A stretch of DNA of 63,020 bases, the filler included, from Collodictyon triciliatum (lineage: Eukaryota), in NCBI GenBank assembly GCA_043381765.1. It is 17 parts of 17 records of this genome, joined end to end, with 100 filler letters (N's around TTAATTAATTAA, not from the genome) between each part and the next. Parts side by side here need not be neighbours in the genome. Positions count along the whole stretch, not along the records: positions 56,660 to 60,329 come from JBHJMP010007010.1; positions 60,430 to 63,020 come from JBHJMP010007046.1; 15 more parts are not named here. One strand, 5' to 3'. The notes under the pieces are model-generated. The model saw only the letters and a list, made by a program, of their open reading frames with translations, searched no databases and was not told where the DNA came from. Both the position numbers and the translations under genes were made by a program. Below, one piece after another: positions 3,789 to 62,588 of the stretch. The first letter of the stretch is position 1, and each line of letters begins with the position of its first letter.

Positions 3789-3901
3789 AAGCAAGAGTTG
3801 AGCAAGAGCCTTTAAACCCAAGAGGTTTTTTGTTTTTGTTTTTTTTTTTTTTTGTTTTAATTTTTTTTTTTTTTTTTTTTTGTCTTTTCCTTTTTTATTT
3901 G

Positions 3902-3952
<51 letters not shown>

Positions 3953-4283
3953 TTATGTGTGGTGATATGACTGAATTAAACATGTAGTATAGAACTCTAA
4001 AAAAACATATGTTCTCCGCCCGCAGATTTCGAAAGCGAGGCAAAAGCAGCTGCTGACCTGGGCATGATTATCAAAACAATCTTTAAACTATAAACACAAC
4101 TTTTGTCTCGCCATCAGGCTTTTCAAATACTTTACAACAATGATATCATACATACAAGAAGGATGAGAGGGAGATTTTTGCCTCATAGTCCTTAAAGGGG
4201 CCACCCGTAAACCTTATATCGAGAAGGCGATGACAGAGTTTTTCACTTAAGGACTGGAGAGCGTGTAAGACACAGTTTCGGCA

Positions 4284-4469
4284 CTAGCGCCGCTCAAGTA
4301 TATATAACCGGAAATTTATTTAATGCCTAAAATCGTTATATTTTATAAAACTTATACTAAAAGGCTTATACAATCTTTCGATTGATAAGCCTGGTACTCT
4401 AGTATCCAAAGTCTCACCACTTTTTCACAAAGATTGTGTAGTGGCGAAGGCTGCCAGGAAAGACCCGAC

Positions 4470-4472
<3 letters not shown>
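4284..4472 (-). ncRNA. Candidate Fanzor omegaRNA scaffold / element right end (copy A)
   Basis: Lies immediately 3' of Fanzor copy A, and 4354-4472 is homologous to 62468-62588. Three predicted stems: 4450-4472, 4414-4447, and a long GAAA-tetraloop hairpin at 4354-4405. The distal boundary at 4284 is inferred. Confidence 0.6.
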
Positions 4473-6512
<2,040 letters not shown>

Positions 6513-7371
6513 CTGAAAGTCTTTGTTTTACGTTTCCCTTTAGAGAACTACCGAGTTTTCAGTTTTAATCAGCCTTTAGTCAATCAGTCGATTTAATATA
6601 TATAAAATTGCACAGAATCAATTCAGGTAAAATTAAGCACCTACCGAGACTCTCAAAATGTGTGCATTGTGGCAAACACACACACACAAAGTTTTTTTTT
6701 ACAAGTGATTTGAGACAAAACGCTAAGAGCCGACTCGGCAAGTTCGAAAGGACGGCCGTATAGCCGTTGCGACTGAAAGTTAACGCATCGACCCCAAACA
6801 ACATGATTGCCGATGCAAGTGCGGATAGTATACTTTTTTGAAATGCATGTTTGGTGGCAGGTTTATGGGCTGATTTCTGTCTGGGCCAAGGCAAGGGCTT
6901 GTTTGTCAGTTTTGAATTTTTGAATGAATATTACATAACGGAAAATAAAATATAAGCTGATTATAGGAATTGAATGAACTTATTATGTATTTTTAACTAT
7001 ATTATATATACCAATCATACTAACATATTATTCAGATTCTTTCTTGGATTCATCAGAGCTCCTGCTTTCGTCAATCCAGATTTAATTCGATGGTTTTCTG
7101 TGCAAAAAACTGCTTTTGATGAGTACACTTTCGTTGTATATAAAGTGGTGTGCCTTGAAAGGGATAAAACCAAGTTGGTCACAACCTTTGCAATGAAGTT
7201 TATCCATTAACAGGCTGAATGAGACCGAAGAGAAAGAAAAGAAAAAGGAAGAAGATGAATGAATCAGAGCAACTAATACTGAGCACCATATGCATACTGA
7301 TCTTGCTGCCAGAAGCCTTTTTTTATTCCACTTTACTACCACTACTACTACCACTACTACTACCACTACTA

Positions 7372-7469
<98 letters not shown>

Positions 7470-24349: not shown

Positions 24350-26081
24350 TCCATCAATGAGGTAGGTATATGAATTTGAATACTCGATTATGTGTGATAT
24401 CTAGAGACTCGATCCAACCCATACGAAAAATGCAGTCGGGTATTTCACCAAACTATGTAAATGTATCAATACATCAGAGAAAGTGGTATGCTGCAAGTCT
24501 AAAGTATTTGAGGAGATGTATGTAGATCACTGTTACGTGATTATGGGAAAGACAAAGGTCTTTCAAGGCAGTTAGCTCATCGAATTCCTGGGGAAGCGTT
24601 TCAATCTGCACTTTTTTTTCCCGTACGACGTTGCATATGATTAATGTGAGTGGCATATGATCAATTCTCGAAGTGACATTTTGGTGGATAAAGCCCTGAC
24701 AACCTTGTTGAAAGAAATGTCAATCGAGCACAAGCCTGCCCAAGAATCGATAAGCCCTTTATGGATATTACTCAGACCTTGGTTAATGCAAACAGCTTCG
24801 AACAGAGCCAAGGAGTGCATGATTTCTGACGTCGATTTGCATATGTAACGAACCTGTGTAGGGTTCCTATAGAAAGGCAACGAAGATATTCCCACGTGTG
24901 ATCTTTTTGTATGAACGAAGTCTCGGTATTCGATGTTAAAGTTTTTTAGATTCTTCATGAAGGTAATGGCTTCAGGCAAGACTTCTACCTACAAAAAGCG
25001 CCTCAGTCAAAATTTTTTTTAATTAATCATTCGAAAAGATATTTTGATATTGTATCAGTTTCTTGTTTTAAAAAATCGTCTACGTGGCGCATACTTCGTT
25101 CTCTTGAAGGTAGAATGTTGTTAATTGCGATAGAATCGAAAGGCCATCAGGTAATGATGTGATTGCGTTTGTTGACAAATCCATGTGCTTCAAGTTTGAA
25201 AGGTATGAGATACTATTCGGAAGTGATGTGATTGAGTTTTTATTCAAGTCAATCAGCGTCAAATTTGTCAAGGAGAGAACAGGAATAGGAATCTCCATGA
25301 ACATGTTGTGCCTCAGACTGAGCGCCTTCAACTGAGTCAAAAGTGAAAAGTTCATGGGTGTGGAAGATAGTTTATTTTGACCCAACTGAAGTATCACAAG
25401 ATTTGACAGGGTATATATCTGTTCTGGGAGTGCACTGATATTTATTTTGTCCAAGTACAAACCTGTAAGGTTCTGCAAGGCCAATATCTGCAAAGGAAAG
25501 GAGGCAAGGTCTCTGTATCCCAGGCTCAAGTTTTGAAGATTCGAGAATATCGATATCTTATGAGTAATATTTGTAAATTTATTTTGGTTGGCATAGAGCG
25601 TTTTCAAGTTTATCATTAGCATTAGCTCCTCAGGAAATGACTCAAGACGATTGCAATCGAGTTGGATAGACTCTAACTTTGTCAAGAGTGCAAAGCTGGC
25701 ACCCAAAACAGATAACCTATTGTAGGAAAAACCCAGTGAGAGCAGCCCAGTAAGCAACGAAATACCATTAGGAAGGTGGTTGTAGTGGTTTTGGTTCAGG
25801 TGAACTTCAGTCAGACGAGACAAAAGTGAAAGATCTGCCGGCAACTCAGCAATTCTGTTTTGATTGAGCCAAAGTACCTCCAAGTTTGAAACTAAAAATA
25901 CACCGCCAGGAATATTGACCAGGCTTCTTGCGGAGATGTTAAGGTATGTGCAGTTTTCCAGTTGGCCGTCGCCTCCTTTTGTTCGATCTGCGATATCTCC
26001 GATGATTTTTCCAAGAGCTTTTAGTTGGCTTTTGTGGTTATCGATTCCTCTGGTGCTTTCTTTCGTATAAAAGTTTCCCAT
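24350..26081 (-). CDS. Leucine-rich-repeat protein with putative N-myristoylation signal (3' extent uncertain)
   Basis: 333-aa first exon with about 12 LxxLxLxxNxL repeats, starting MGNFYT (MGxxxT). Further LRR exons at about 24990-24350. Confidence 0.85.
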
Positions 26082-33822: not shown

Positions 33823-34025
33823 GATAAAAAAGAGATAAAAAAGAGATAAAAAAGAGATAAAAAAGAGATAAAAAAGAGATAAAAAAGAGATAAAAAAGAG
33901 ATAAAAAAGAGATAAAAAAGAGATANNNNNNNNNNNNNNNNNNNNNNNNNNNNNNNNNNNNNNNNNNNNTTAATTAATTAANNNNNNNNNNNNNNNNNNN
34001 NNNNNNNNNNNNNNNNNNNNNNNNN

Positions 34026-37000
34026 TTCGGAGCCGTAGCTTCCATTTGGACATGTAATGCATGATGATTGATTGAATGAGCCGGTTTTGTTGTTGAATGT
34101 GCCAGCTGAACATGATGTGCATGATGCTTGGCCATCTTTATCGCTCCATGTTCCTTGTGGACATTCAATGCATGATTTATTGCCATATAAGCCGGATTTT
34201 GAGTTGAATGTGCCTTTTGGACAAGCATAGCATGATTCCGAGTCTTTTGTGATTCCTTCTTTTTGATAGAATCCTGGTGAGCATGAAAAGCATGATGAGC
34301 TTCCGACTGAGCTGTAACCTCCATCTGGACATGAAATGCATGATGATTGATTGGATGAACCAGTTCTATTGTTGAATGTACCGGCTGGACATGATGTGCA
34401 TGATACTTGACCCTCTCTATCATTCCAAGTACCTTGTGGACATTCGATACATGATGCATTTCCATATGAGCCGGAGTTTGAGTTGAATGTGCCTTTTGGA
34501 CAAGGAGAACATGATTTTGAGTCTTTACTGATGTCTTCTTTTTGATATAATCCTGATGAGCATAGACTGCATGAAGAGCTTCTTTCTGAGCTGTAGCTTC
34601 CATTTGGACATGAAATGCATGATGATACATTGAATGAACCAGTTCTATTGCTGAATGTACCAGCTGGACATGATGTGCATGATGCTTGACCATCTTTATC
34701 ATTCCAAGTACCTTGCGGACATTCAATACATGATAGGTTTCCATATGAACCGGATATTGAGTTGAATGTGCCTTTTGGACAAGCATGGCATGATTTGGAG
34801 TCTTTTGTGATATCTTCTTTTTGATAGAATCCTGATAAGCATGAGTTACATGATGAGCTTCTCTCTGAGCTATAGCTTCCGTTTGGACATGAAATGCATG
34901 ATGATTGATTGAATGAGCCAGTTTTGTTGTTGAATGTTCCAGCTGGACATGATGTGCATGATGCTTGACCATCTCTATCATTCCAAGTACCTTGTGGACA
35001 TTCAATACATGATATGTCTCCATATAAGCCGAAATTTGAGTTGAATGTGCCTTTTGGACAAGCATAGCATGATTTGGAGTCTTTTGTGATATCTTCTTTT
35101 TGATAGAATCCTGATAAACATAGACTACATGATGAGCTTCTTTCTGAACTATAGCTTCCATTTGGACATGAAATACATGATGATTGATTATATGAGCCAG
35201 TTTTGTTGTTGAATGTGCCAGCTGGACATGATGTGCATGATGCTTGACCATCTCTATCATTCCAAGTACCTTGTGGACATTCAATACATGATTTGTTGCC
35301 ATATGAGCCTGAGTTTGAGTTGAATGTGCCTTTTGGACAAGCATAGCATGAATTTGAGTCCTTTTTGATATCTTCTTTTTCATAGTATCCTGATGAACAT
35401 AAACTACAAAATGCGCTTCCGACCGAGCTGTAGCTTCCATCTGGACATGAAATGCATGATGATTGATTGAATGAGCCGGTTTTATTGTTGAATGTACCAG
35501 CTGAACATGATGTGCATGATGCTTGGCCATCTTTATCGCTCCATGTTCCTTGTGGACATTCAATGCATGATATATTTCCATATGAGCCGGAGTTTGAGTT
35601 GAATGAGCCTTTTGGACAAGCGTAGCATGATTTTGAGTCTTTTGTGATTTCTTCTTTTTGATAGAATCCTGGTGAGCATGAAAAGCATGATGAGCTTCTT
35701 TCTGAGCTGTAGCTTCCGTTTGGACATGAAATGCACGATGATTCATTGAATGAGCCGGTTTTATTGTTGAATGTACCAGGTGGACACGATGTGCATGATG
35801 CTTGACCATCTCTACCATTCCAAGTACCTTGTGGACATTTAATACATGATTTGTTTCCATATGAACCGGATATTGAGTTGAATGAGCCTTTTGGACAAGC
35901 GTAGCATGATTCAGAGTCTTTTATGATTCCTTCTTTTTGATAGAACCCTGATGAGCACAAACTACATGATGAACTTCTCTCTGAGCTGTAGCTTCCCTTT
36001 GGACATGAAATACATGATGATTGGTTAAATGAACCAGTTTTGTTGTTGAATGTGCCAGCTGGACAGGATGTACATGATGCTTGACCATCCTTATCATTCC
36101 AAGTGCCTTGTGGACATTCGGTGCATGATGTGTTTCCATATGAACCAGATATTGAGTTGAATGTGCCTTTTGGACAAGCATAGCATGATTCTGAGTCTTT
36201 TATGATTCCTTCTTTTTGATAGAATCCTGATGAACATAAGCTGCATGATGAACTTCTCTCTGAGCTGTAGCTTCCCTTTGGACATGAAATGCATGATGAT
36301 TGATTGAATAAACCAGTTTGATTGTTGAATGTACCAGCTGGACATGATGTGCATGTTGCCTGACCATCTCTATCATTCCAAGTACCTTGTGGACATTCGA
36401 TACATGATGTGTTTCCATATGAGCCGGAGTTTGAGTTGAATGTGCCTTTTGGACATGCATAGCATGATTGTGAGTCTTTTGAGATGCCTTCTTTTTGGTA
36501 GAATCCTGATAAACATAGACTACATGATGAGCTTCTTTCTGAACTATAGCTTCCATTTGAACATGAAATACATGATGATTGATTGAATGAGCCGGTTTTA
36601 TTGTTGAATGTACCAGCTGGACAGGATGTACATGATGCTTGACCATCTCTATCATTCCAAGCACCTTGTGGACAATCAGCACATGACGTGTTTCCATATG
36701 AGCCGGAGTATGAATTGAATGTGCCTTTTGGACAAGCATAGCATGACTGTGAGTCTTTTGTGATGTCTTCTTTTTGATAAAATCCTGATGAGCATAGACT
36801 GCATGATGAGCTTCCGACTGAGCTGTAGCTTCCGTTTGGACATGAAATGCATGATGATTGATTGAATGAGCCAGTTTTGTTATTATATGTTCCAGCTGGA
36901 CAGGATGTGCATGATGCTTGACCATCTCTACCATTCCAAGTACCTTGTGGGCATTCAATACATGATATATTGCCATATAAGCCAGAGTTTGAGTTAAATG

Positions 37001-37700
37001 TGCCTTTTGGACAAGCGTAGCATGATTCAGAGTCTTTTGTGATTTCTTCTTTTTGATAGAATCCTGGTGAACATGAGATACATGATGAACTTCTTTCTGA
37101 GCTGTAGCTTCCATCTGGACATGAAATGCATGATGACTGGTCAAATGAACCAGCCTTACCGTTGAATGTACCAGGTGGACACGATATGCATGATGCTTGA
37201 CCATCTCTGTCATTCCAAGTACCTTGTCGGCATTCAATACATGATTTGTTTCCATATGAGCCGGAGTTTGAATTGAATGTGCCTTTTGGACAAGCATAAC
37301 ATGATTTTGGGTCTTTTGTGATTCCTTCTTTTTGATAGAATCCGGATGAACATGAGATACACGATGCGCTTCTTTCTGAGCTGTAGCTTCCGTCTGGACA
37401 TGGAATGCATAGTAATTGATTCAATGAGCCAGTTTTGTTGTTGAATGTGCCAGCTGGACAGGATGTGCATGACGCTTGACCATCTCTACCATTCCAAGTA
37501 CCTTGTGGGCATTCAGTACATGATTTGTTTCCATATGAGCCCGAGTATGAGTTGAATGTGCCTTTTGGACAAGCATAGCATGATTCAGAGTCTTTTATGA
37601 TATCTTCTTTTTGATAGAATCCTGATAAGCATAAGCTGCATGAAGAGCTTCTATCTGAGCTGTAGCTTCCATCTGGACATGAAATGCATGATGATTCATT
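34026..37700 (-). CDS. Cys-rich surface protein fragment (GCC2/GCC3, ephrin-receptor-like CxxCPxG repeats), open across the whole contig
   Basis: About 13 tandem 279-nt (93-aa) units, each with five CxxC(P/S)xG(T/S/F)(F/W/Y) modules and several NxS/T sequons. Confidence 0.9.
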
Positions 37701-37968: not shown

Positions 37969-40900
37969 TCAATCCTGGCACTCCCGGCTGCTCAAAGGGA
38001 GAAGAAGTTTAAGCTTCTGAAAGCCCAGTACCATCCCGACCGAAACCAAGAGAACGAGGCTCTGGCCACACTCATATTCCAGTTCATTCAAAGTGAATAT
38101 GAAAAGTATCAAGCTTAGCATCGAGGAGCTCGTGATTCGGATATGTAAGTAAGATAAGCACAGACTCTCCCTTGTAGCAATAAGACTCGATTGTGGTATA
38201 TTGTTTGCGAGTGATGATATTGTGGCGATGAATAAAGGAACAAGCAAGACCCGTTGTTTTGTACTTAAAGTCAGGTTTATGATGATGCTTATCCTTCGCA
38301 TGAAAGGAATGTGCGAAGCCTGTCCTGAGGCAAATCGCAAGTATTTGTATATTTGATTGATTATTTTTTTTTCCTTTATTCGATTCAAAGTTATTTGATT
38401 GATTATAATAGAGAAAACAGGACTATGGTGACAGCAGGTGATAGGTTTAATGCAACGTGTTAAACAGCTAAAACACGAATCAATACCAAACAGAGAGGTG
38501 AGTAGAACATGTCTTTCTCCATAGAAGACAAGTAGAAGAGCGTAAAGAAAGAGAAAACGAGCACCTATATCATGATTTTCCCTTTCGTGCTCTTCGCATA
38601 GAGCCACCGACTGTAGGCCAAGGCTACACAGGGCACTATTGCATTCAAGATATTCCTGGACAAATAGTACGACCCATCGTGGTTTTGGTATGCAAAATCT
38701 GGGAAGAATATGTGCACCCCTGCCACGATTAACTTGACGAGAACACATTTTCTCGGCTCGTGTGATTCGGTGATGCTGGTGGTGAAGCGGTCGATGATGA
38801 AGACCATGAATGGGAGAAATGACCAAATCCATATCGAGGATGCATCCGACCTTGGGTTGTCACGAAGGCAACTGGGAAAGAGGTCTCTTAGCTTCGATGC
38901 AACCAACAACCAAGACAACATATCTTTTTAATTTTCAGCGGTGTATGGATTACTTACAGGACAGATGTTGCCAAGACAGTTGAACAAAACGCAAAATAAA
39001 TGGATATCATGATTCCATAAATCATGGCTCTATTGTATGGGACGTAAAAAAGCCTCCCTCTCCTCCGACGTCCGTGCGTCTAACCGTGAGGTAGATATAT
39101 ATTTTAGAATCGAGTGTCTGATTATTATAATTGGTATATCACGAGAGACTAGGTAGTCTGAATATCAAGACGTGTTCGTTAGATTTTCTTGTCAAACAGC
39201 CGCAAGTGCGTGAGACGTTGAACCAAAATCACATCAAGTTAGGCGTACCGCTCTGATTCTACCGGCAAGTGCCTCGATTTCTGGCTCGTCTATATGGATT
39301 CCAGCAAATCTTGCGCTCCCAGCATTGAGTGGTGAGACTAGTAAATCATTATCCCCTTCAAGCCCATTATCAACGAATATCTTTGTGAGATATTTTGGAA
39401 AATAGTGAGTTATCAGTTTTTGTTTTCTATTGATTTAGGGCTTTTTGGAGGGGGTTTTGGTTTAATTATGAAACATCTCTTCGGTATCCTACAAATGAAG
39501 TCATTACTTTACGGAAAGCCTCTGAATGAACATAGTGGTAGTCAGTTCCTATGTATTTTGCTACTCGATTACGCCCTTGTTCGTCTGAGTTATTGTTACC
39601 TAATCTTGAGGTTTGGTCATCATGGAGGCAAGCAGCTGTTCTATTTTCTCGATTACCGACGAATGCTGTAACGTCTGGTTCAGTATATGCATCGTCAGAG
39701 CGAATGACAATCCGATTGATTCTATGCCAGAATATCATCAGAAGGGATTAAGAAAAAAGGAGCTGAGTAAAGTCAGCCTCTGCACAAAAACTACAACCCC
39801 TCAAATGTCTTTATTCATGCATACCTGGATTAAAGTTTGAAGTGGATATATGTTGATTTTAGGCATACCTGGGCTTTGCTTCTTCCAGCATAGTAAGACT
39901 TGGATGAGGGGCTTCTCTGTGATTTCTGGTTTGTGCTGTTGGGGAGAAATCAGATATTGGAGTATTAAGAGGAGCAATATCTGGTTGGTCTTTGTTGGAT
40001 ATGAAGTCGTCTTCCGGTGCTTCAGCTCGCCCCTAAGTTCCATAGGAATGTCATTGTGACATGAATAAAAAAAAAAAAAATACACTATTAGTTTCGGTCG
40101 CATGAACTTAGCTATGCAAAAATGGATGAAATAGATCGTACTTAAGTGAAGTGCATATGGTCCAGCAATAACACAATTAAGTATAAAAATGTTGGATGTC
40201 GTTATAATTTGATTCTAAAAAAAAAAAACTGAAAATGCTTACCTCATTTTGTATCAATTTTGGAGAACCCTGGACCTATATAGTAGATAATTGTATATTA
40301 GATACGAGCGGGATTAGATTAAAGAGCGGTATAATAAGTGCAGTGCTTAAATAAAATCATCAGGTAATACACATTTAAAGACTAACATAGATCATTTCTG
40401 AAATACGAATAAAAAGCTCAGAAGAATATTAGAATATCGTGGGTATGTGGCTGCTTCGTCAGTAGAAAATTATGAAAAGAAAAGTAGTGCCTACCTGAAA
40501 GTAAATAACCTCCCCTACAATCTCTTCATTCGTCAAAGGGTTAAGTTGAATAACTGGATGGTGCTTATGATATCGCGAAAGGATTTCTGTTCCTCTTTTT
40601 CGAAAGAGAACTTTGTTCAGCTGAAAGGCAGAATAATACGAGTAAAGAAACTTCCCGACGTCCTGCTTATTGCTGGGTGATAGGGACATGTGAAGGGAGG
40701 ATCCAATTGTTAGGACATGTTTTTGTGAATAGACCGTAAGTATGGCTTATTTTGGTCTAAAAAACATATTTTTATATTTTACTTTATTTTATTGTTCTTC
40801 CTTTCAGTTTATTTTTAGATTTAAATTATGAAACATTTGCTCCTGCAAGATTTTGTATTGCTTGCGTTGATTAAAAAAAAATACTTAAAAAAAAAAGGAG

Positions 40901-49117: not shown

Positions 49118-52100
49118 AGTGTTTCGATTGTCTCATTTGATTTGTGTGCTTCCTCCTCCTTCGATTTCCTTGTGGATTCTATCTCGTCTCTCAGCTTACT
49201 GATTGCTGATTCATGCTCCTCAATAAGAAGCTGTCTTTCACGAAGAGATGAAGCTGTCGTATCTTGTTGCGACAAGATATTAGTTTTCAGCTGGTCCATA
49301 TTGGTATTCAGCTGAGCCACCTCATTCAAGAGAGACTCGTTCTCTTTTTGAAGTGATTCGATTCGCTCTTTCATTTGCAAAATGCTTACATTTTTTTCAG
49401 ATATTTGAGCGAATTGAGATTCATTCTCCTTCTGTAGTAATTCGATTTTCTCTTTCAGTTGTAAAATATTTACATCTTTATCAGAAATTTGAGCGTATTG
49501 AGATTCATTTGCTTTCTGTAGTGTTTCGATTTTCTCTTTCAGTTGTAAAATGCTTACATCTTTTTCGGATATTTGATTGGATTGGGACTCATTCTCTTTC
49601 TGTAGTGACCCAATATGCTCTTTCAGTTGCAAATTACTTGTATCTTTTTCAGATATTTGAGTGGATTGGGATTCATTCTCCTTCTGTAGTGATTCAATTC
49701 GCTCTTCCAGTTGTAAAATATTTACATCTTTTTCAGAAATTTGATTGGATTGGGACTCGATCTCTTTCTGTAGTGACCCAATATGCTCTTTCAATTGCAA
49801 AATACTTACATCTTTTTCAGATATTTGAGTGGATTGAGATTCGTTCTCCTTCTGAAGTGATTCGATTTGCTCTTTCAGTTGCGTTACAACTTGCTTTGCC
49901 TTCGATTTGAGTGCTTCGATTGTCTCATTTGATTTGTGTGCTTCCTCCTCCTTCGATTTCCTTGTGGATTCTATCTCGTCTCTCAGCTTACTGATTGCTG
50001 ATTCATGCTCCTCAATAAGAAGCTGTCTTTCACGAAGAGATGAAGCTGTCGTATCTTGTTGCGACGAGATATTAGTTTTCAGTTGGTCCATATTGGTATT
50101 CAGCTGAGCCACCTCATTCAAGAGAGACTCGTTCTCTTTTTGAAGTGATTCGATTCGCTCTTTCAATTGCAAAATGCTTACATCTTTTTCGGATATTTGA
50201 TTGGATTGAGATTCATTCTCTTTCTGAAGTGATTCGATATTCTCTTTCAGTTGTAAAATGCTTACATCTTTTTCAGATATTTGAGTGGATTGAGATTCGT
50301 TCTCCTTCTGAAGTGATTCGATTTGCTCTTTCAGTTGCTTTACAACTTGTTTTGCCTTCGATTTGAGTGTTTCGATCGCCTCATTTGATTTGTGTGCCTC
50401 ATCTTCCTTCGATTTCCTTGTGGATTCTATCTCATCTCTCAGCTTGCTGATTGCTGATTCATGCTCCTCAATAAGAAGCTGTCTCTCACGAAGAGATGAA
50501 GCTGTCGTATCTTGTTGTGACGAGATATTAGTTTTCAGTTGGTCCATATTGGTATTCAGCTGGGCCACCTCATTCAGGAGAGACTCGTTCTCTTTTTGTA
50601 GTGACCCAATATGCTCTTTCAGTTGCAAAATGCTTACATCTTTTTCAGATATTTGAGTGGATTGAGACTCGATCTCTTTCTGTAGTGATTCAATTTTCTC
50701 TTTCAGTTGCAAAATACTTGCGTCTTTTTCAGATATTTGAGTGGATTGAGATTCATTTTCCTTCTGTAGTGATTCAATTTTCTCTTTCAATTGCAAAATG
50801 CTTACATCTTTTTCAGATATTTGAGTGGATTGAGACTCGATCTCTTTCTGTAGTGATTCGATTTGCTCTTTCAGTTGCAAAATGCTTACATCTTTTTCAG
50901 ATATTTGAGTGGATTGAGACTCGATCTCTTTCTGTAGTGATTCGATTTGCTCTTTCAGTTGCAAAATACTTGCGTCTTTTTCAGATATTTGAGTGGATTG
51001 AGATTCATTTTCCTTCTGTAGTGATTCGATTTGCTCTTTCAGTTGCAAAATGCTAACATCTTTTTCAGAAATTTGAGCGTATTGAGATTCATTTTCTTTC
51101 TGTAGTGACCCAATATGCTCTTTCAGTTGCAAAATACTTGCGTCTTTTTCAGATATTTGAGTGGATTGAGACTTGTTCTCTTTCTGTAGTGATTCGATTT
51201 TCCCTTTCATTTGCAAAATGCTTACATTTTTTTCAGATATTTGATTGGATTGGGATTCATTTTCCTTCTGTAGTGATTCGATTTGCTCTTTTAGTTGCAA
51301 ATTACTTGTATCTTTTTCAGATATTTGAGTGGATTGAGACTCGTTCTCCTTCTGAAGTGATTCGATTTGTTCTTTCAATTGCAAAATACTTGCGTCTTTT
51401 TCAAATATTTGAGTGGATTGGGACTCGTTCTCCTTCTGAAGTGATTCGATTTGCTCTTTCAGTTGCATTACAACTTGTTTTGCCTTCGATTTGAGTGTTT
51501 CGATCGCCTCATTTGATTTGTGTGCCTCATCTTCCTTCGATTTCCTTGTGGATTCTACCTCATCTCTCAGCTTGCTGATTGCTGATTCATGCTCCTCAAT
51601 AAGAAGCTGTCTCTCACGAAGAGATGAAGCTGTTATATCTTCTTGCGACGAGATATTAGTTTTCAGTTGGTCCATACTGGTATTCAGCTGAGCCACCTCA
51701 TTCAAGAGAGACTCGTTCTCTTTTTGAAGTGATTCGATTTGCTCTTCCAGTTGCGAAATGCTTACATATTTTTCGGATATTTGATTGGATTGTGATTCGT
51801 TGTCTTTTTGAAGTGATTCGATTTGCTCTTTCATTTGCAAAATACTTGCATCTTTTTCAGATATTTGATTGGATTGGGACTCATTCTCTTTCTGTAGTGA
51901 CCCAATATGCTCTTTCAATTGTAAAATACTTGCGTCTTTTTCAGATATTTGAGTGGATTGAGACTCGTTCCCTCTTTTGAGTAATTCGATTTGCTCTTTC
52001 AGTTGCGTTACAACTTGTTTTGCCTTCGATTTGAGTGCTTCGATTGTCTCATTTGATTTGTGTGCTTCCTCCTCCTTCGATTTCCTTGTGGATTCTATCT

Positions 52101-52788
52101 CGTCTCTCAGCTTGCTGATTGCTGATTCATGCTCCTCAATAAGAAGCTGTCTCTCACGAAGAGATGAGGCTGTCGTATCTTGTTGTGACGAGATATTAGT
52201 TTTCAGTTGGTCCATACTGGTATTCAGCTGGGCCACCTCATTCAAGAGAGACTCGTTGTCTTTTTGAAGTGATTCAATTTGCTCTTTTAGTTGTGAGATG
52301 CTTGCATCTTTTTCATATATTTGAGTAGAGCGAGACTCGTTCTCTAACTGAAGTGATTCAATTTGTTCTTTCAATTGAACAACAACTTGTTTAGCTTTCG
52401 ATTTAAGGACTTCAATTGTTTCATTCAGTTTATTAATTTCATTTTCCTTCAAAACACGAGCGGATTCTATTTCACTCCGTAAATTTCTTATAGTAGTCTC
52501 ACAACTGTCTAGATCCTTTTCTAGCCCATGCAATTTTTGATCTCTTTCCGAAAGTATTGATGAATTATCTATGTATTCTGAGTGAATAATGAGGCGTGAT
52601 TCATTCATGTTGTCTGATGATATATCCTGACTCGGACGAGCAGGTTTTAAATGTCCCTTAAGTGATCTATTTTGGTTCACAATTGATTCAGTTTGGATGT
52701 CTCTGCCGTCATGACTTACCTCCCCTGTGGTAGATTCGGCATATAATTCGGTGCTATCGTTCACCCTATTCGATTTGGACTCTACCCC
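49118..52788 (-). CDS. Giant coiled-coil repeat protein fragment
   Basis: ORF of more than 1200 aa. Tandem 28-aa units (QLKEQIESLQKENESQSTQISEKDASIL) are interspersed with five copies of an ~80-aa module (LLNEVAQLNT...KAKQVV; the last is cut by the contig end). Confidence 0.88.
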
Positions 52789-56659: not shown

Positions 56660-59600
56660 CAGGTCTTTCTGTCATGATTTTCACTTTCCACAGTACAAAA
56701 GCAGGCAGACCAACCAAGAAAAGAAAGAAAACCGGAACAGATATTGCAAGCAGTTTTTGATATTCATCCGTGGCTGGGCTGCATTGAACCCAGGGCTTGA
56801 AATTCAGATACCATTTATTCACACCTTCGTCATAAACGGTGCATCCAAAAACACCAAACACCTCTTTTGCAACCGAGTAGTATATAAAAAACAGAAGATT
56901 CAATGCGATGAAAACAGCCTGCAATAAAATATTTTTTTTAGAATTACTAAAGATGAAACTGTATCTAATAGAAAAATTGATAATTGAACATTAATTTTTT
57001 CATCCTTACTTTGTTCTGTTTGTGTCCATATCCGAAATAGTACGTAGCTGAGCCAACGATGATAAAGATTGGTATTCTTGCAAAACTGAACATCAGAGAA
57101 GCAAATACATCGTCTACTCCAAGGACACAGGAAAGGCTGGGAAATTGAATTGAACCAATCGACGATGAGACTTCGATAAAGCTGTTTGCATCTTCTGAAA
57201 GAACAAGTCCACTAGACACAATCGACAGTGTTTGCATGTGGAACATTATTATCCTGAGTTTCGCTACAAAAATATTCTGATTAATATAATAAGAATCAAG
57301 TGAAATAACTTAGTAACATTTACCTGATTTTGATGTCTCTGTGAAATACAGATAGCAAATGAACATAAAGAATCCAATCGAAGCAAGAATCAGAGTTGAA
57401 TAAATTGTTCCTTTATCGCATTTCACACACGACCTTCCTTGATTTCCGTATCCATTCTGACATTTTGAGCAGGCATAACCTTCATAGCCCTCTTGACAAA
57501 GGTCTATGATTTCGACCGTCGTATTTGAATTCGAAATTTTCTCTGGAATCGACACATCACATGGCTCGCGACGTGGACACGGCAGTATTGATTTCACAGA
57601 GGTGACGCTTGGTGAAGCATGACAGAATTTCAAGGACGTTCCATCAAGGCAATCACATCCTCTTGGGCATTGAACGCAGTTATTTCCAAATCCAAAATAT
57701 CCAGGCAAGCATTTACAAAATTCAAAGTCATAGTATTCTGGATTCAAGTCAACCTCCAACTCAATCAGACCAGATTTCGAAATAATAGAAGGACAAAGGT
57801 AGCGTTTCGTTTCATCTTGGAGATTGAAAGATGTTGTAAAATTCATGAAATCAGGAAGAAAATTGGCTGTTCCGTGATTCATCGATGTTCTATTCAATCC
57901 CAAATACTCGAGCTTTGAAAACCCGATGTATGATTCGGGAATGCTTCCAACAATCGGATTTCCAGTGAGGTCAAGGTAAGTCCATCTCAATAGATTTGTG
58001 AGTTCATCAAGCTTAGTGATGTTGTTTTTCTTAATACTAAACGTTTTTATGTTAACAACATAGTTATAAAGTCTCCAATTCAATGCTCCATAGAGTTGGT
58101 TGTCATCAAGCAAAAGGTTTTCATAAAAGTAATCGTAATTTCCTGAAGCTGGAACAATAAAAATGCCAATGTCTCCTGAAAATGAGTTGTTTCTCAAGTC
58201 AATGGTGACTAGATTCGGCAGATTCCAGAATAAATCAGGCATACTTCCGGACAATTTATTGTGAGATAAAACGAGTGATTTCAGCTCTGACAGTCCCTGA
58301 AAATAGGTTGGGACTGTGCCGTTCATTTTGTTCCAAGACAAGTCGATGTATTTAATTGATGGTAATTTCCAGTAATTGGGAATAGAGCCAGTGATTTGGT
58401 TTTCGCTCACATCTAGTCTCGTCAGGTTATTCAGATTGAACATCGGTAATGTGCCTGACAACTTATTTCGGAACAACACTATTTCCTTGATGTTTATGCA
58501 ATCTTTGAAATCTGGAACTTCTCCCTCTAGTTGATTATCATAGACAGAAAATATCTCCAGTTTACGCATATTTGAAAGGTCTGGTATTGTGCCTAAAATT
58601 AATCATTAAATTTACAGGAAATATGAAAATCAAAAGAAATAGAAATGGAAAATAAATAGAAATCACCATTCAATCTGTTTCTGTCAAGATAAATTCTTCT
58701 AACACTTGGATTTCCATTAAAGTTTGGAACCGTTCCTATAATGTTGAGTTAGTTTTTATTAATAATGCATGAAATAATAGTTAAAAATTACCAGTCAATT
58801 GGTTGTCGACAAGAGAAATCCTTTCAATATTTGGAATTCCACTGAAGTTTGGAACGGTTCCTGTAATATAAAGTGAGCTTTTTCATCAATATTACATGAA
58901 ATAATGATTAAACTTACCAGTCAATTTATTGCTGGAAAGATAAATTCTTAAAACATTTGGAATTCCACTAAAGTTTGGAACTGTCCCTGTAATATATAGT
59001 TAGTTTTTTTTTTTTATTAATAACATATGAAATAATAATTAAACATACCAATCAACTGGTTGCTGGAAAGATAAATTATTTCAACATTTGGAATTCCACT
59101 GAAGTTTGGAATGGTCCCTGTAATATATAGTTAGTTTTCATCAATAATGCATGAAATAACAATTAAAACTTACCATCCAACTGGTTGTTGTAAAGAATAA
59201 TTCCCAAAACATTTGGAATTCCACTGAAGTTTGGAACTGTCCCTGTAATGTAAAGTTGGCTTTTTTTATATTACGTGAAAATAATAATTAAAACTTACCA
59301 TCCAATTGATTGCTGGAAAGATTAATTATTAAAACTATCGGAATTCCACTGAAGTTTGGAACCGTTCCTGTGTTATAAAGTTAGTTTTTCATCAATAATA
59401 CATAAAATAATAATTAAAACTTACCATCCAACTGATTGCTGTGAAGATAAATTCTTAAAACATTTGGAATTCTACTGAAGTTTGGAACGGTTCCTGTAGT
59501 ATAAAATTAGTTTTTTTAATAATACATGAAAATAATAATAATTAAACTTACCAGTCAATTGATTGTTGAAAAGATAAATTCTTAAAACATTTGGAATTCT

Positions 59601-60328: not shown

Positions 60329-61250
60329 ANNNNNNNNNNNNNNNNNNNNNNNNNNNNNNNNNNNNNNNNNNNNTTAATTAATTAANNNNNNNNNNNNNNN
60401 NNNNNNNNNNNNNNNNNNNNNNNNNNNNNATTTTTTTTTTAAAAATTAATTTAATGAAGATTTTTTTTTTTTTTTAGATGGACTGAAGTTTTATTAAAAT
60501 TGAAAACTCTGTGGTTTCCTAAAGGGGAAAAAAAAATAAAGACTTTCAGATGAGGAAAAGAAAACGTCTTGAGTCTGAGAGTCTAAAGTATGTAAAACCA
60601 GACTATCGAAATGTGGAAACATCTCTAAAGTCGATTGTAAAGAATCTGGATGACTATGAAGAAATCAACGACATGCTTTTATTGTGTCATAATTTGGTTA
60701 CCGACAATTATCTGTTTGCAAGATGTTACGTATTGAAATCACAACTCCCAACAACAGATGAAAACTTTTTTTTTGGACGCTTTAAAGACAGTCGGAATAG
60801 TTTCACAAGACAGACCCGCAAGATTAAAACATCCAGAAATGATTAAAGACATGATGACTTTTTATCTCAATGATTTCCGATTCCTTTTGTCCCAAGGAGA
60901 ATGCTTTCCGTTGGTTGGACTGTCTCGTGTACTACCGTACTTGGCGAAGAAAATGTTAACAGCTTATCATAACAACATTAAGGAGCGTTTTGCAAAGAGG
61001 TTACTGCGCTTTATAAATCTAACAGTTCCTGGAGATGAGAATATAACGGAAGCTATTCAAAAGGCAGACCTACGAAAGTTAAAAAAAACCATCTTCAAGA
61101 AACTCGAAATACTGGAACAATGTAAAGAATGGGCTAGAATGTATTTGAATCGTATCATTCCCAGCGATATTGTAAAAGGTATCGAATATGACGTCAAAGT
61201 CAATTCAAGTAAGTAGATTCCATGTCTGATTTACATGAATCGCATTTTTG

Positions 61251-61296
61251 TATGGCATAACCTCGCTGCACTTTGAATCGAATAAAGGAAAAAAAA
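61251..61296 (+). mobile_element. Short retroposed insert, family 2, replacing ~61 nt of Fanzor B
   Basis: TATGGCATAACCTCGCTGCACTTTGAATCGAATAAAGGAAAAAAAA sits where copy A has 5750-5810 (EDIGTKLFQPIPLRTNNIPCR). There is no TSD; the target site is deleted. Confidence 0.8.
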
Positions 61297-61577
61297 TATT
61301 ACTCTAGATACTATATGTTTGATAGATATATTAGTATTGTCTGGAAAAAAATCATTAATGAAGAATTATTAGGATGGAAAGAGACACTATGGGATACGTT
61401 CTTTGAAATGAATAAGAGGGTCTTTCATCAAAGAGGCTACAATTTTAAATACATGATACAAACAGACGGCTTGGCGGTGTCATTATTATTTGAAAAGAAA
61501 GGTATTTCAAACTCAAAATTCAAAAATAATCAAAAAAAAAAACCCCCCAAGAATATGTTTATATAGACGAACTTTCC

Positions 61578-61603
61578 CTTTGAATCGAATAAAGGAAAAA
61601 AAA
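61578..61603 (+). mobile_element. Short retroposed insert, family 2, inside Fanzor B
   Basis: CTTTGAATCGAATAAAGGAAAAAAAA between perfect 17-nt TSDs ATATAGACGAACTTTCC (61561-61577 and 61604-61620). Copy A has the empty site (~5331-5347). Confidence 0.92.
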
Positions 61604-62467
61604 ATATAGACGAACTTTCCGAAGAGCAAGTATCTTCATTATTGACAAAAAATAGTTTGAGTGGACGCAGGCAAGTTTAATTTGGTTTACATGGTGGATG
61701 AGACAGGTAAGAAATCACGTTACACGACACACCAAGGAAGAAATGATAGCAAATCTCTTGAAAATCACAAAATACTCTTGCGCGAGAGAAAAGTACATTT
61801 CTTCATGGATATACATGGCAACAGATTTACAAAGTGCTGTTTCTTTTGGTGCCAGGACTTGTGAAGAAGATCAGCAGTTTGAGACATCAAGAGTATCTTT
61901 AATCGATTTAGAGACAGAACCGAGTAAACATAATTCATGCACCGTCGATTATGAATAATTTCGAAAATATGTATCTATGAAATCAAGATACCAGATAGAA
62001 CTATCCGGATTTTATGAACAAGTAACTTTTCGAAAGATGAACTGGAGGCATTATGTTAATACAAAAAGAAGTGAACAGTTGTTTATGGACCGATTCGAAA
62101 AGACATTGGGCAAGGATGTTGTAATGACGTATTGAGACTGGAGCAGAAAATCTCTGATGAAACATTTTATGCCAACAATCGGAATAGGATTACGAAGAAT
62201 ACTATCTAAACGTTTTGAACCAGTTAGTGTAAATGGATTAAAAACCTCCAAGATGTGCTGTAGCTGCGAAAAAGAACTGGGATATATGAAACTGAAAGGA
62301 AACTCAAAAAAAGTGTATATAGATGTCTCATATGTAAATAATGCAATCGCTCAGAAAGCAAACAAACTGTATTCTCGACAAGAGACTTTAACAGCGCTCA
62401 AAATATACTCGACAAAGTTCCTTTAATACTTCAAAAATATAGATACAATTTCCTCCAAAAAAAATAG

Positions 62468-62588
62468 GCTGTTGGGTCTTTCCTGGCAGCCTTCATCACT
62501 ACACGACCATAGTGAAAAAAAGTGGTGAGACCTTGGATACTAGCGCACCAGGTTTACCAATCGAAAGAATGGTATACTCATCCTAGTA
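62468..62588 (+). ncRNA. Candidate Fanzor omegaRNA scaffold (copy B)
   Basis: Homologous to 4354-4472. Stems at 62468-62490, 62493-62528, and a GAAA-capped hairpin closed by TACTAG/CTAGTA (62538-62588). Confidence 0.6.

Follow-up and report, generated by a model that had tools for sequence, protein, structure and literature searches.

The window analysed here is a stretch of 63,020 nt from Collodictyon triciliatum (GenBank assembly GCA_043381765.1), which consists of 17 contigs of about 3.67 kb joined by sixteen 100-nt spacers (N's around TTAATTAATTAA) and does not represent a single locus. Two of the contigs contain a decayed copy of the same repeat, whose open reading frame (ORF) is related to Fanzor1, a RuvC nuclease of eukaryotes that resembles TnpB and takes an omega-RNA as its guide. 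Copy A is located in the contig at positions 3789-7469, with 884 nt of upstream and 582 nt of downstream flank. Copy B is located in the last contig (60430-63020), which is cut by the window end, and only 47 nt of 5' flank are available for it. The coordinates of the two copies and of their main features are given in Table 1.

Table 1. Features of the two Fanzor1 copies in the window. Positions count along the whole stretch.
Feature	Position	Strand	Basis
Copy B: 73-nt leader, decayed Fanzor1 ORF, 3' structured tail	60477..62572	+	blastn, MAFFT against copy A; alignment to P0002
Copy A of the repeat	4371..6585	-	blastn, MAFFT; alignment to P0002
T9 run, a +1 frameshift that follows codon 79 (a T8 run would be in frame)	60766..60774 (B); 6284-6292 (A)	+ (B); - (A)	
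Second copy of the tail of the 26-nt retroposed unit in B, displacing ~60 nt of ORF kept in A	61251..61296	+	
26-nt retroposed unit (61578-61603) in B between 17-nt target duplications	61561..61620	+	MAFFT, repeat search
TGA where A has GGA, followed by GTG and by the GAC codon of the RuvC-I aspartate (61664-61666)	61658..61666	+	sequence
RuvC-II glutamate to glycine, GGA (A keeps GAA, VDE, 4702-4700)	62235..62237	+	sequence
CCSC, the first zinc-finger CxxC, intact (A: RRNC)	62256..62267	+	sequence
RuvC-III RD, AGA GAC (A: KD, AAG GAC, 4558-4553)	62381..62386	+	motif after the available part of Bao and Jurka (2013)
3' tail, three predicted stems including a 9-bp hairpin GGCTGTTGGG/CCTGGCAGCC at 62467-62491	62467..62572	+	predicted fold
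Retroposed insert in A (5471-5604, 134 nt: ~36 nt + ~98 A) with 14-nt target duplications (AAAAAGACTACAAT)	5457..5618	-	family D16

The two copies share a stretch of about 2.1 kb. In the MAFFT alignment, the likeness begins 73 nt upstream of the start codon (60550 in B, 6512 in A) and stops at the right ends listed in Table 1, the latter to within a few nucleotides. The blastn search returned the same stretch as two segments, B 60477-61443 against A 6585-5605 (82.6%) and B 61430-62576 against A 5470-4367 (82.3%), and copy A is the sole match of contig B in the window, barring microsatellites and a 26-29-nt unit described below. The substitution identity is about 87.5% overall, or 82% when gaps are counted. 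By part, and for substitutions only, the leader is 79.5% identical, the two parts of the ORF 88.0% and 87.5%, and the final 106 nt 86.5%. The colinearity from just upstream of the ATG, which a previous reading of the sequence alone (the sequence-only reading) had described, was thus recovered by both methods. The same reading extended the likeness to about 120 nt past the coding region. The tail does reach about 105 nt beyond the first in-frame stop of copy B (TAG, 62465-62467), but much of it was probably coding, since copy A has CAA at this site and reads on, and since P0002, an intact relative, extends about 27 residues further. A 20-nt inverted repeat with 80-85% complementarity is kept in both copies (60626-60645/62371-62390 in B, 6417-6436/4549-4568 in A). 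The two arms are placed symmetrically, roughly 150 nt in from the left end and 180 nt in from the right; the repeat is internal rather than terminal and is probably due to chance.

To identify the gene, we used P0001, a read-through of the C-terminal half of copy A in which two stops were set to X. Its only matches in the PDB at E<=10 are three Fanzor1 proteins, from Parasitella (9CF0; 3.9e-5), Spizellomyces (SpuFz1, 8GKH; 7.2e-5) and Guillardia (9CER; 0.24). A phmmer search of P0001 against 1.84 billion representatives gave 1072 matches at E<=1e-3, of which 273 reached E<=1e-10. The best match was P0002, a protein of 634 amino acids that is 50% identical to P0001 and that matches residues 14-607 of SpuFz1 with an E-value of 9.2e-37; all PDB matches of P0002 at E<=1 are Fanzor1. 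With P0002 as the reference for a frameshift-aware alignment, copy B could be aligned from M1 to residue 588 (62407) with 250 of 564 residues identical, and copy A from M1 to residue 616 (4445) with 273 of 590. Both copies have the architecture of a full-length Fanzor1 protein, with an N-terminal REC/WED half and a C-terminal RuvC/zinc-ribbon half (~600-650 amino acids), and the D...E...CxxC...CxxC...RD motifs are located at the expected positions in their ORFs. The Fanzor1 identity is thus upheld both by the PDB matches and by the colinearity over the whole length. In the ESM Atlas, the clusters nearest to a 171-residue piece of copy A are eukaryotic, most commonly from Zoopagomycota and Mucoromycota, or belong to Nucleocytoviricota, although these can be taken as leads only.

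Like the solved Fanzor1 proteins, the window family has the order RuvC-I D, RuvC-II E, C4 zinc finger and RuvC-III RD, and the N-terminus is basic (MRKRKRLE in B, MKKRRRLE in A). It differs from them in that the window copies are dead, in that the sequence identity is low (E of about 1e-4 to 1e-5 for P0001), and in that it contains an additional segment of about 33 amino acids between RuvC-I and the NSxTVDY block, which the viral P0002 lacks. The available part of Bao and Jurka (2013) gives the Fanzor/TnpB motif as D-X(125,275)-[TS][TS]-X-X-[C4 zinc finger]-X(5,50)-RD. Every element of this motif is present in a composite of A and B, while neither copy alone keeps all of them. Copy A contains the aspartate in GVDAG, DELRTSK 195 residues further on and the second CxxC in CLMCKEC, but has lost the first CxxC (RRNC) and has KD in place of RD. 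In copy B, the aspartate is placed behind a TGA and the glutamate is replaced by glycine, while CCSC and RD are intact. The segment GVDAGKF is intact in copy A (5290-5270) and in P0158, one of several public fragments of the family, and VDE(Y/F) is retained by two others, P0157 and P0023.

The lesions that had been reported for copy B, namely the TGA at 61658-61660, the GGA of RuvC-II and the intact CCSC, were all found in place when checked on the sequence. The frameshift-aware alignment to P0002 revealed five frameshifts and seven stops in copy B and eight frameshifts and five stops in copy A, counts that vary with the alignment path through gapped regions. Each copy thus carries some 12-13 disabling lesions, nearly all private, besides the retroposon insertions and the catalytic damage (E>G in RuvC-II of B; loss of the first CxxC and RD>KD in A). 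Neither copy is functional now; both are dead. The 26-nt unit within 61561-61620 in B and the 134-nt insert in A represent damage that followed the insertion of the copies. The lesions had also been described as largely complementary. The composite contains every motif, but the lesions are far more numerous than those that had been listed, and one of them, the T9 frameshift, is shared rather than complementary.

Beyond the ends of the repeat, the aligned flanks of A and B are identical at 24 of 47 positions on the 5' side and at 44 of 105 on the 3' side, which is the background of AT-rich DNA. A and B were inserted separately: their flanks are unrelated and most of their lesions are private. 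This agrees with the sequence-only reading, which held that the flanks differ and that long homologous flanks would instead indicate a segmental duplication or haplotigs; when examined, the likeness was found to stop sharply on both sides. The assembly is highly fragmented and contigs in the size class of A and B may be enriched in repeats, which could raise the suspicion that the copies are haplotigs, assembly artefacts or the product of a recent segmental duplication. However, the substitution divergence of about 12.5%, the different indels and retroposon insertions in the two copies and, above all, the flanks refute such an origin, to which we attach hardly any probability.

The divergence between A and B carries no trace of selection. 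The two copies differ at 74 of 579, 74 of 581 and 66 of 578 sites at the three codon positions (12.8, 12.7 and 11.4%). The Nei-Gojobori omega is 0.81 (bootstrap 0.62-1.08) over 523 codons, which are the 552 shared codons minus those that contain stops and minus residues 238-262, replaced in B; both frame-shifted controls also gave 0.81. The dN/dS comparison that had been proposed, here made for A versus B only, thus shows no difference from the controls, and the whole distance of about 12.5% looks neutral. All of it could alternatively post-date the insertion of both copies from one master.

The idea that the copies decayed independently is supported by nearly all of the lesions, but it does not hold for the +1 frameshift at the T9 run, which is common to A, B and a third copy, the NCBI-sourced fragment P0161, and the divergence is fully neutral. 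P0161 aligns with B in a single frame across the run (105 of 136 residues identical), and hence has the same frame relation at T9 as A and B. The shared T9 run and the neutral divergence together suggest that the amplifying source, and thus the common source of A, B and P0161, was probably already Fanzor-defective. A second coincident net +1 before RuvC-I, which in B follows a 6-nt difference, was not counted, as shared and independent origins are equally parsimonious; the ENA fragment P0158 is in frame just before RuvC-I. Just upstream of T9, an ATG in the downstream frame (ATGAAA...) is present in A, B and P0161 (60757-60774; 6301-6284 on the minus strand), from which a product that lacks about 75 N-terminal residues could in principle have been made.

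Ten more distinct fragments that are 67-85% identical to A or B are present in public protein sets (P0161, P0159, P0160, P0158, P0027, P0051, P0156, P0088, P0157 and P0023). They are located on separate contigs of 500-740 nt, five from NCBI and five from ENA. No two overlapping fragments are identical, and with A and B included, two segments are each present in five different versions. Judged from these sequences, the family is multi-copy, as had been proposed. The substantial copy number that had also been suggested is an extrapolation, and short contigs are likely repeat-enriched. Exact-pattern scans with two conserved 21-22-mers gave no matches in either the genome contig or the viral contig collection. 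In a sequencing-run index, only small shares (0.05-0.11) were seen, in metagenome runs labelled freshwater, lake, aquatic or subsurface and in two coded-organism runs, and they say nothing about habitat, copy number or expression. Taken together, we consider it fairly probable that A and B are old, dead insertions of a multi-copy family of mobile elements, the sole gene of which encoded a Fanzor1 protein of about 640 amino acids.

The closest intact relatives are found in giant viruses. Genes similar to P0002, with 80-88% identity to it, are encoded by giant-virus contigs in IMG/VR. Two different viral contexts (L019 3631-6952 and L021 3625-6951) share exactly 3.3 kb, which form a unit with perfect 32-nt terminal inverted repeats (TIRs) beginning with CACCCTTGAACATTTAAAACGCCGA and with a TA on each side. 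The unit contains a transposase gene (DDE_3 and helix-turn-helix, 343-346 amino acids) divergently oriented to an intact Fanzor1 gene, and its neighbour in L021 is an mRNA capping enzyme of the nucleocytoplasmic large DNA virus type. It also holds a small, basic and conserved ORF of about 69 amino acids. A second unit of 2.37 kb contains Fanzor only and belongs to a clade from lake metagenomes that is more distant, with about 35% identity to P0001; IMG/VR also includes some contigs of this clade and lists two as GVMAG entries. Its TIR resembles that of the 3.3-kb unit, with a common CATTTAAAACGCCGA core (CACCTTTTCTCATTTAAAACGCCGA). The 2.37-kb unit is flanked by TA in all eight aligned loci, the flanks of which are unrelated to each other, and its 621-aa ORF is intact in both of the loci examined. 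It was observed in L001-L018 and L024-L032 (e.g. L015 3501-5861), in at least eight different contexts. Around its stop codon, some 40 nt are invariant, against an identity of 80-93% in the ORF, and this block is a candidate for an omega-RNA segment or for one bound by the transposase. A metagenome scan with P0001 detected no close copies, with relatives at about 35% identity only, and viral scans with P0001 and P0003 found no relative closer than those described here. One virus record of the relatives that was searched for more copies of the transposase contained a single copy.

The available part of Bao and Jurka (2013) describes Fanzor-only Mariner elements with TA target-site duplications (TSDs), as well as virus-borne elements. 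Because the viral relatives likewise pair an autonomous with a non-autonomous form, mobilisation of a Fanzor-only unit in trans is reasonable, and by analogy with these relatives it is plausible that the unit of A and B was a non-autonomous, Fanzor-only DNA transposon of this kind. Judged from the relatives, the mover would most likely have been a Tc1/mariner-IS630 (DDE_3) transposase acting on TA-flanked TIRs. While active, the complex of Fanzor and omega-RNA may have taken its guide from the sequence just beyond the right end and cut element-free sites beside a target-adjacent motif (TAM), which would have favoured retention or homing. The lineage of A, B and the third copy would have been amplified after the +1 frameshift at the T run had broken the ORF.

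Several observations weigh against old insertions of such an element. No TnpB or Fanzor family was identified by Pfam in any of 10 stop-free pieces from the window (0/10) or in P0001. The window pieces lie beyond the reach of the TnpB-related models, and among the relatives PF07282 (OrfB_Zn_ribbon / Cas12f1-like_TNB; cut-off 26.3 bits) recognises P0007 with 28.8 bits, while P0008 (21.8) and P0002 (16.6) are placed below the cut-off. When the left end was compared with the reverse-complemented right end, shuffled sequences performed equally well or better in 296 of 2000 cases for A and in 1800 of 2000 for B, and the ends of A and B show no significant similarity to the TIRs of the relatives. 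A TA is placed directly 3' of the right end in both copies (62573-74 in B, 4370-69 in A), but it abuts the left end only in B (60475-76) and is located 8 nt further out in A (6595-94). The 5' flank of B is short, the ten public fragments possibly come from assemblies other than that of the window, and the relatives on which the analogy is based are only 35-50% identical and reside in viruses, not in this genome. Finally, the T9 frameshift could represent recurrent slippage rather than common ancestry.

Alignment of the flanks, which had been suggested as a means to define the termini, the TSD and the TAM, failed in this respect: a repeat search of the window gave no significant TIR for A or B, and the aligned junctions define no consistent TSD or TAM. 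One may ask whether the 5' boundary is a breakpoint, from a deletion or a nested insertion, rather than a terminus, with A and B being equal-looking remnants of a larger element, either an autonomous transposase+Fanzor unit similar to the viral one of 3.3 kb or an integrated fragment of a giant virus. In the nearest intact relatives, the transposase is located 320 nt upstream of the Fanzor ATG, and both window copies contain retroposon insertions and deletions. The lack of a TIR at the 5' boundary and the 5' flank of B, merely 47 nt and poly-T-rich, would also be consistent with this. However, the likeness of A and B ends at the same nucleotide on both sides, and two independent truncations would not stop at the same nucleotide. 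Nor is there any transposase or viral ORF in the upstream and downstream flanks of A. A tblastn search with the transposases of the relatives against the window gave a best E-value of 0.063, and Pfam found a transposase domain in none of 10 flank ORFs, one of which is a poly-K translation with sub-threshold low-complexity matches. The earlier statement that neither contig contains a transposase is valid for the unit shared by A and B, but carries little weight by itself with flanks of just 47, 582 and 884 nt. Overall, we consider an origin from a larger element unlikely.

Still less likely, in our view, is that A and B are pseudogenes of a domesticated or captured host Fanzor family that spread by DNA duplication or ectopic repair. 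Such an origin would agree with the wholly neutral divergence, the frameshift in common and the lack of both TIRs and TSDs, but it does not explain why the unit hugs the gene, with only 73 nt upstream and a right end near the expected stop, like the right end of the viral elements. Moreover, at least 10 more diverged fragments are present on separate short contigs, and Fanzor1 genes are known almost exclusively within transposons, according to the available part of Bao and Jurka (2013). A processed-pseudogene origin was rejected, as there is no 3' poly-A.

Among known systems, the window family resembles the Fanzor1-only Mariner elements, such as PUl-4, of Bao and Jurka (2013), which also consist of a unit without a transposase. 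The viral relatives mirror the Mariner pair in that source, i.e. a Fanzor-only element and the virus-borne PGv-1 with transposase and Fanzor1, in having TA duplications and TIRs with a conserved core. Unlike in these elements, TIRs and TA duplications are not demonstrable in A and B. The non-autonomous Chlamydomonas Helitron2 elements CRe-1/2/3 in the same source are also multi-copy and Fanzor1-only, and the T-rich sequence 5' of copy B recalls them. However, the target duplications of 7-19 bp, the Helitron-type ends and the hairpins at both ends were not seen in A or B, nor were TSDs of variable length when looked for on their sequences. With the bacterial TnpB systems of IS200-IS605 (obligate mobile element-guided activity, OMEGA), the family shares the core of RuvC and zinc ribbon and presumably a guide RNA from the right end, but it differs in its eukaryotic/viral setting, its longer N-terminal half and its lack of a Y1 or serine TnpA.

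The ORF of the window family ends close to the right end, as in other Fanzor1 elements, and the 3' tail is predicted to be structured. The last 106 nt have a minimum free energy z-score of -2.25, and in a two-sequence consensus all 26 of 26 pairs are kept, four by one-sided changes, with none broken; this is weak evidence for the stems, since A and B, the only two sequences compared, are also those to which the structure was fitted. The tail is a candidate omega-RNA scaffold that would overlap the ORF end, as in SpuFz1, or may simply represent the right-end region. Unlike in characterised Fanzor1 systems, an omega-RNA of the window family is putative, with a predicted structure. Rfam identified just one tRNA in the window, located elsewhere, and nothing at the tail. 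In the accessible part of Saito et al. (2023), the guide is placed 3' of the omega-RNA and a TAM is required.

Each new lineage extends the catalogue of Fanzors as eukaryotic RNA-guided nucleases, and two dead copies add little alone. The analysis yielded as by-products a diverged and previously unannotated Fanzor1 lineage with an insertion of about 33 amino acids after RuvC-I, which published element lists may include, as well as giant-virus contigs with autonomous (DDE_3+Fanzor1) and Fanzor-only elements whose TIRs are built on a conserved core. A consensus from the whole genome could yield a nuclease, an omega-RNA and a TAM that can be tested. There is also a hint of continued amplification by a Fanzor-defective element. 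More speculatively, and we would be somewhat surprised if it were so, the family may have spread once its nuclease gene was broken, either as a passenger with a trans-supplied transposase or with T9 serving as a slippage or recoding site. If the former were true, a Fanzor element would multiply as a pure passenger that needs just its ends and perhaps its RNA, while the transposase, and possibly Fanzor, would be supplied in trans, perhaps from an infecting giant virus with the autonomous form. If the latter were true, some full-length protein would still have been made across T9.

The small insertions in copy B belong to a repeat that occurs elsewhere in the window. An 18-nt unit, CTTTGAATCGAATAAAGG, followed by A8-9 is present three times (61578-61603, 61271-61296 and, on the minus strand, 38362-38391), a number reached in none of 100 shuffles. 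Two of these copies share the 5' end and have target duplications of 14-17 nt. The sequence resembles either a very small retroposed unit or the 3' tail of a long or short interspersed nuclear element, a reading that would indicate non-LTR (long terminal repeat) retrotransposition in the Collodictyon triciliatum genome. Other contigs contain long intron-free ORFs, all on the minus strand (33978-37424, 49118-52764, 57310-58569 and 25080-26081), which encode, among others, a protein of 1148 amino acids that carries 25 Ephrin_rec_like repeats, a coiled-coil protein of 1215 amino acids and several leucine-rich repeat proteins, and these ORFs point to an AT-rich eukaryote that would use the standard code.

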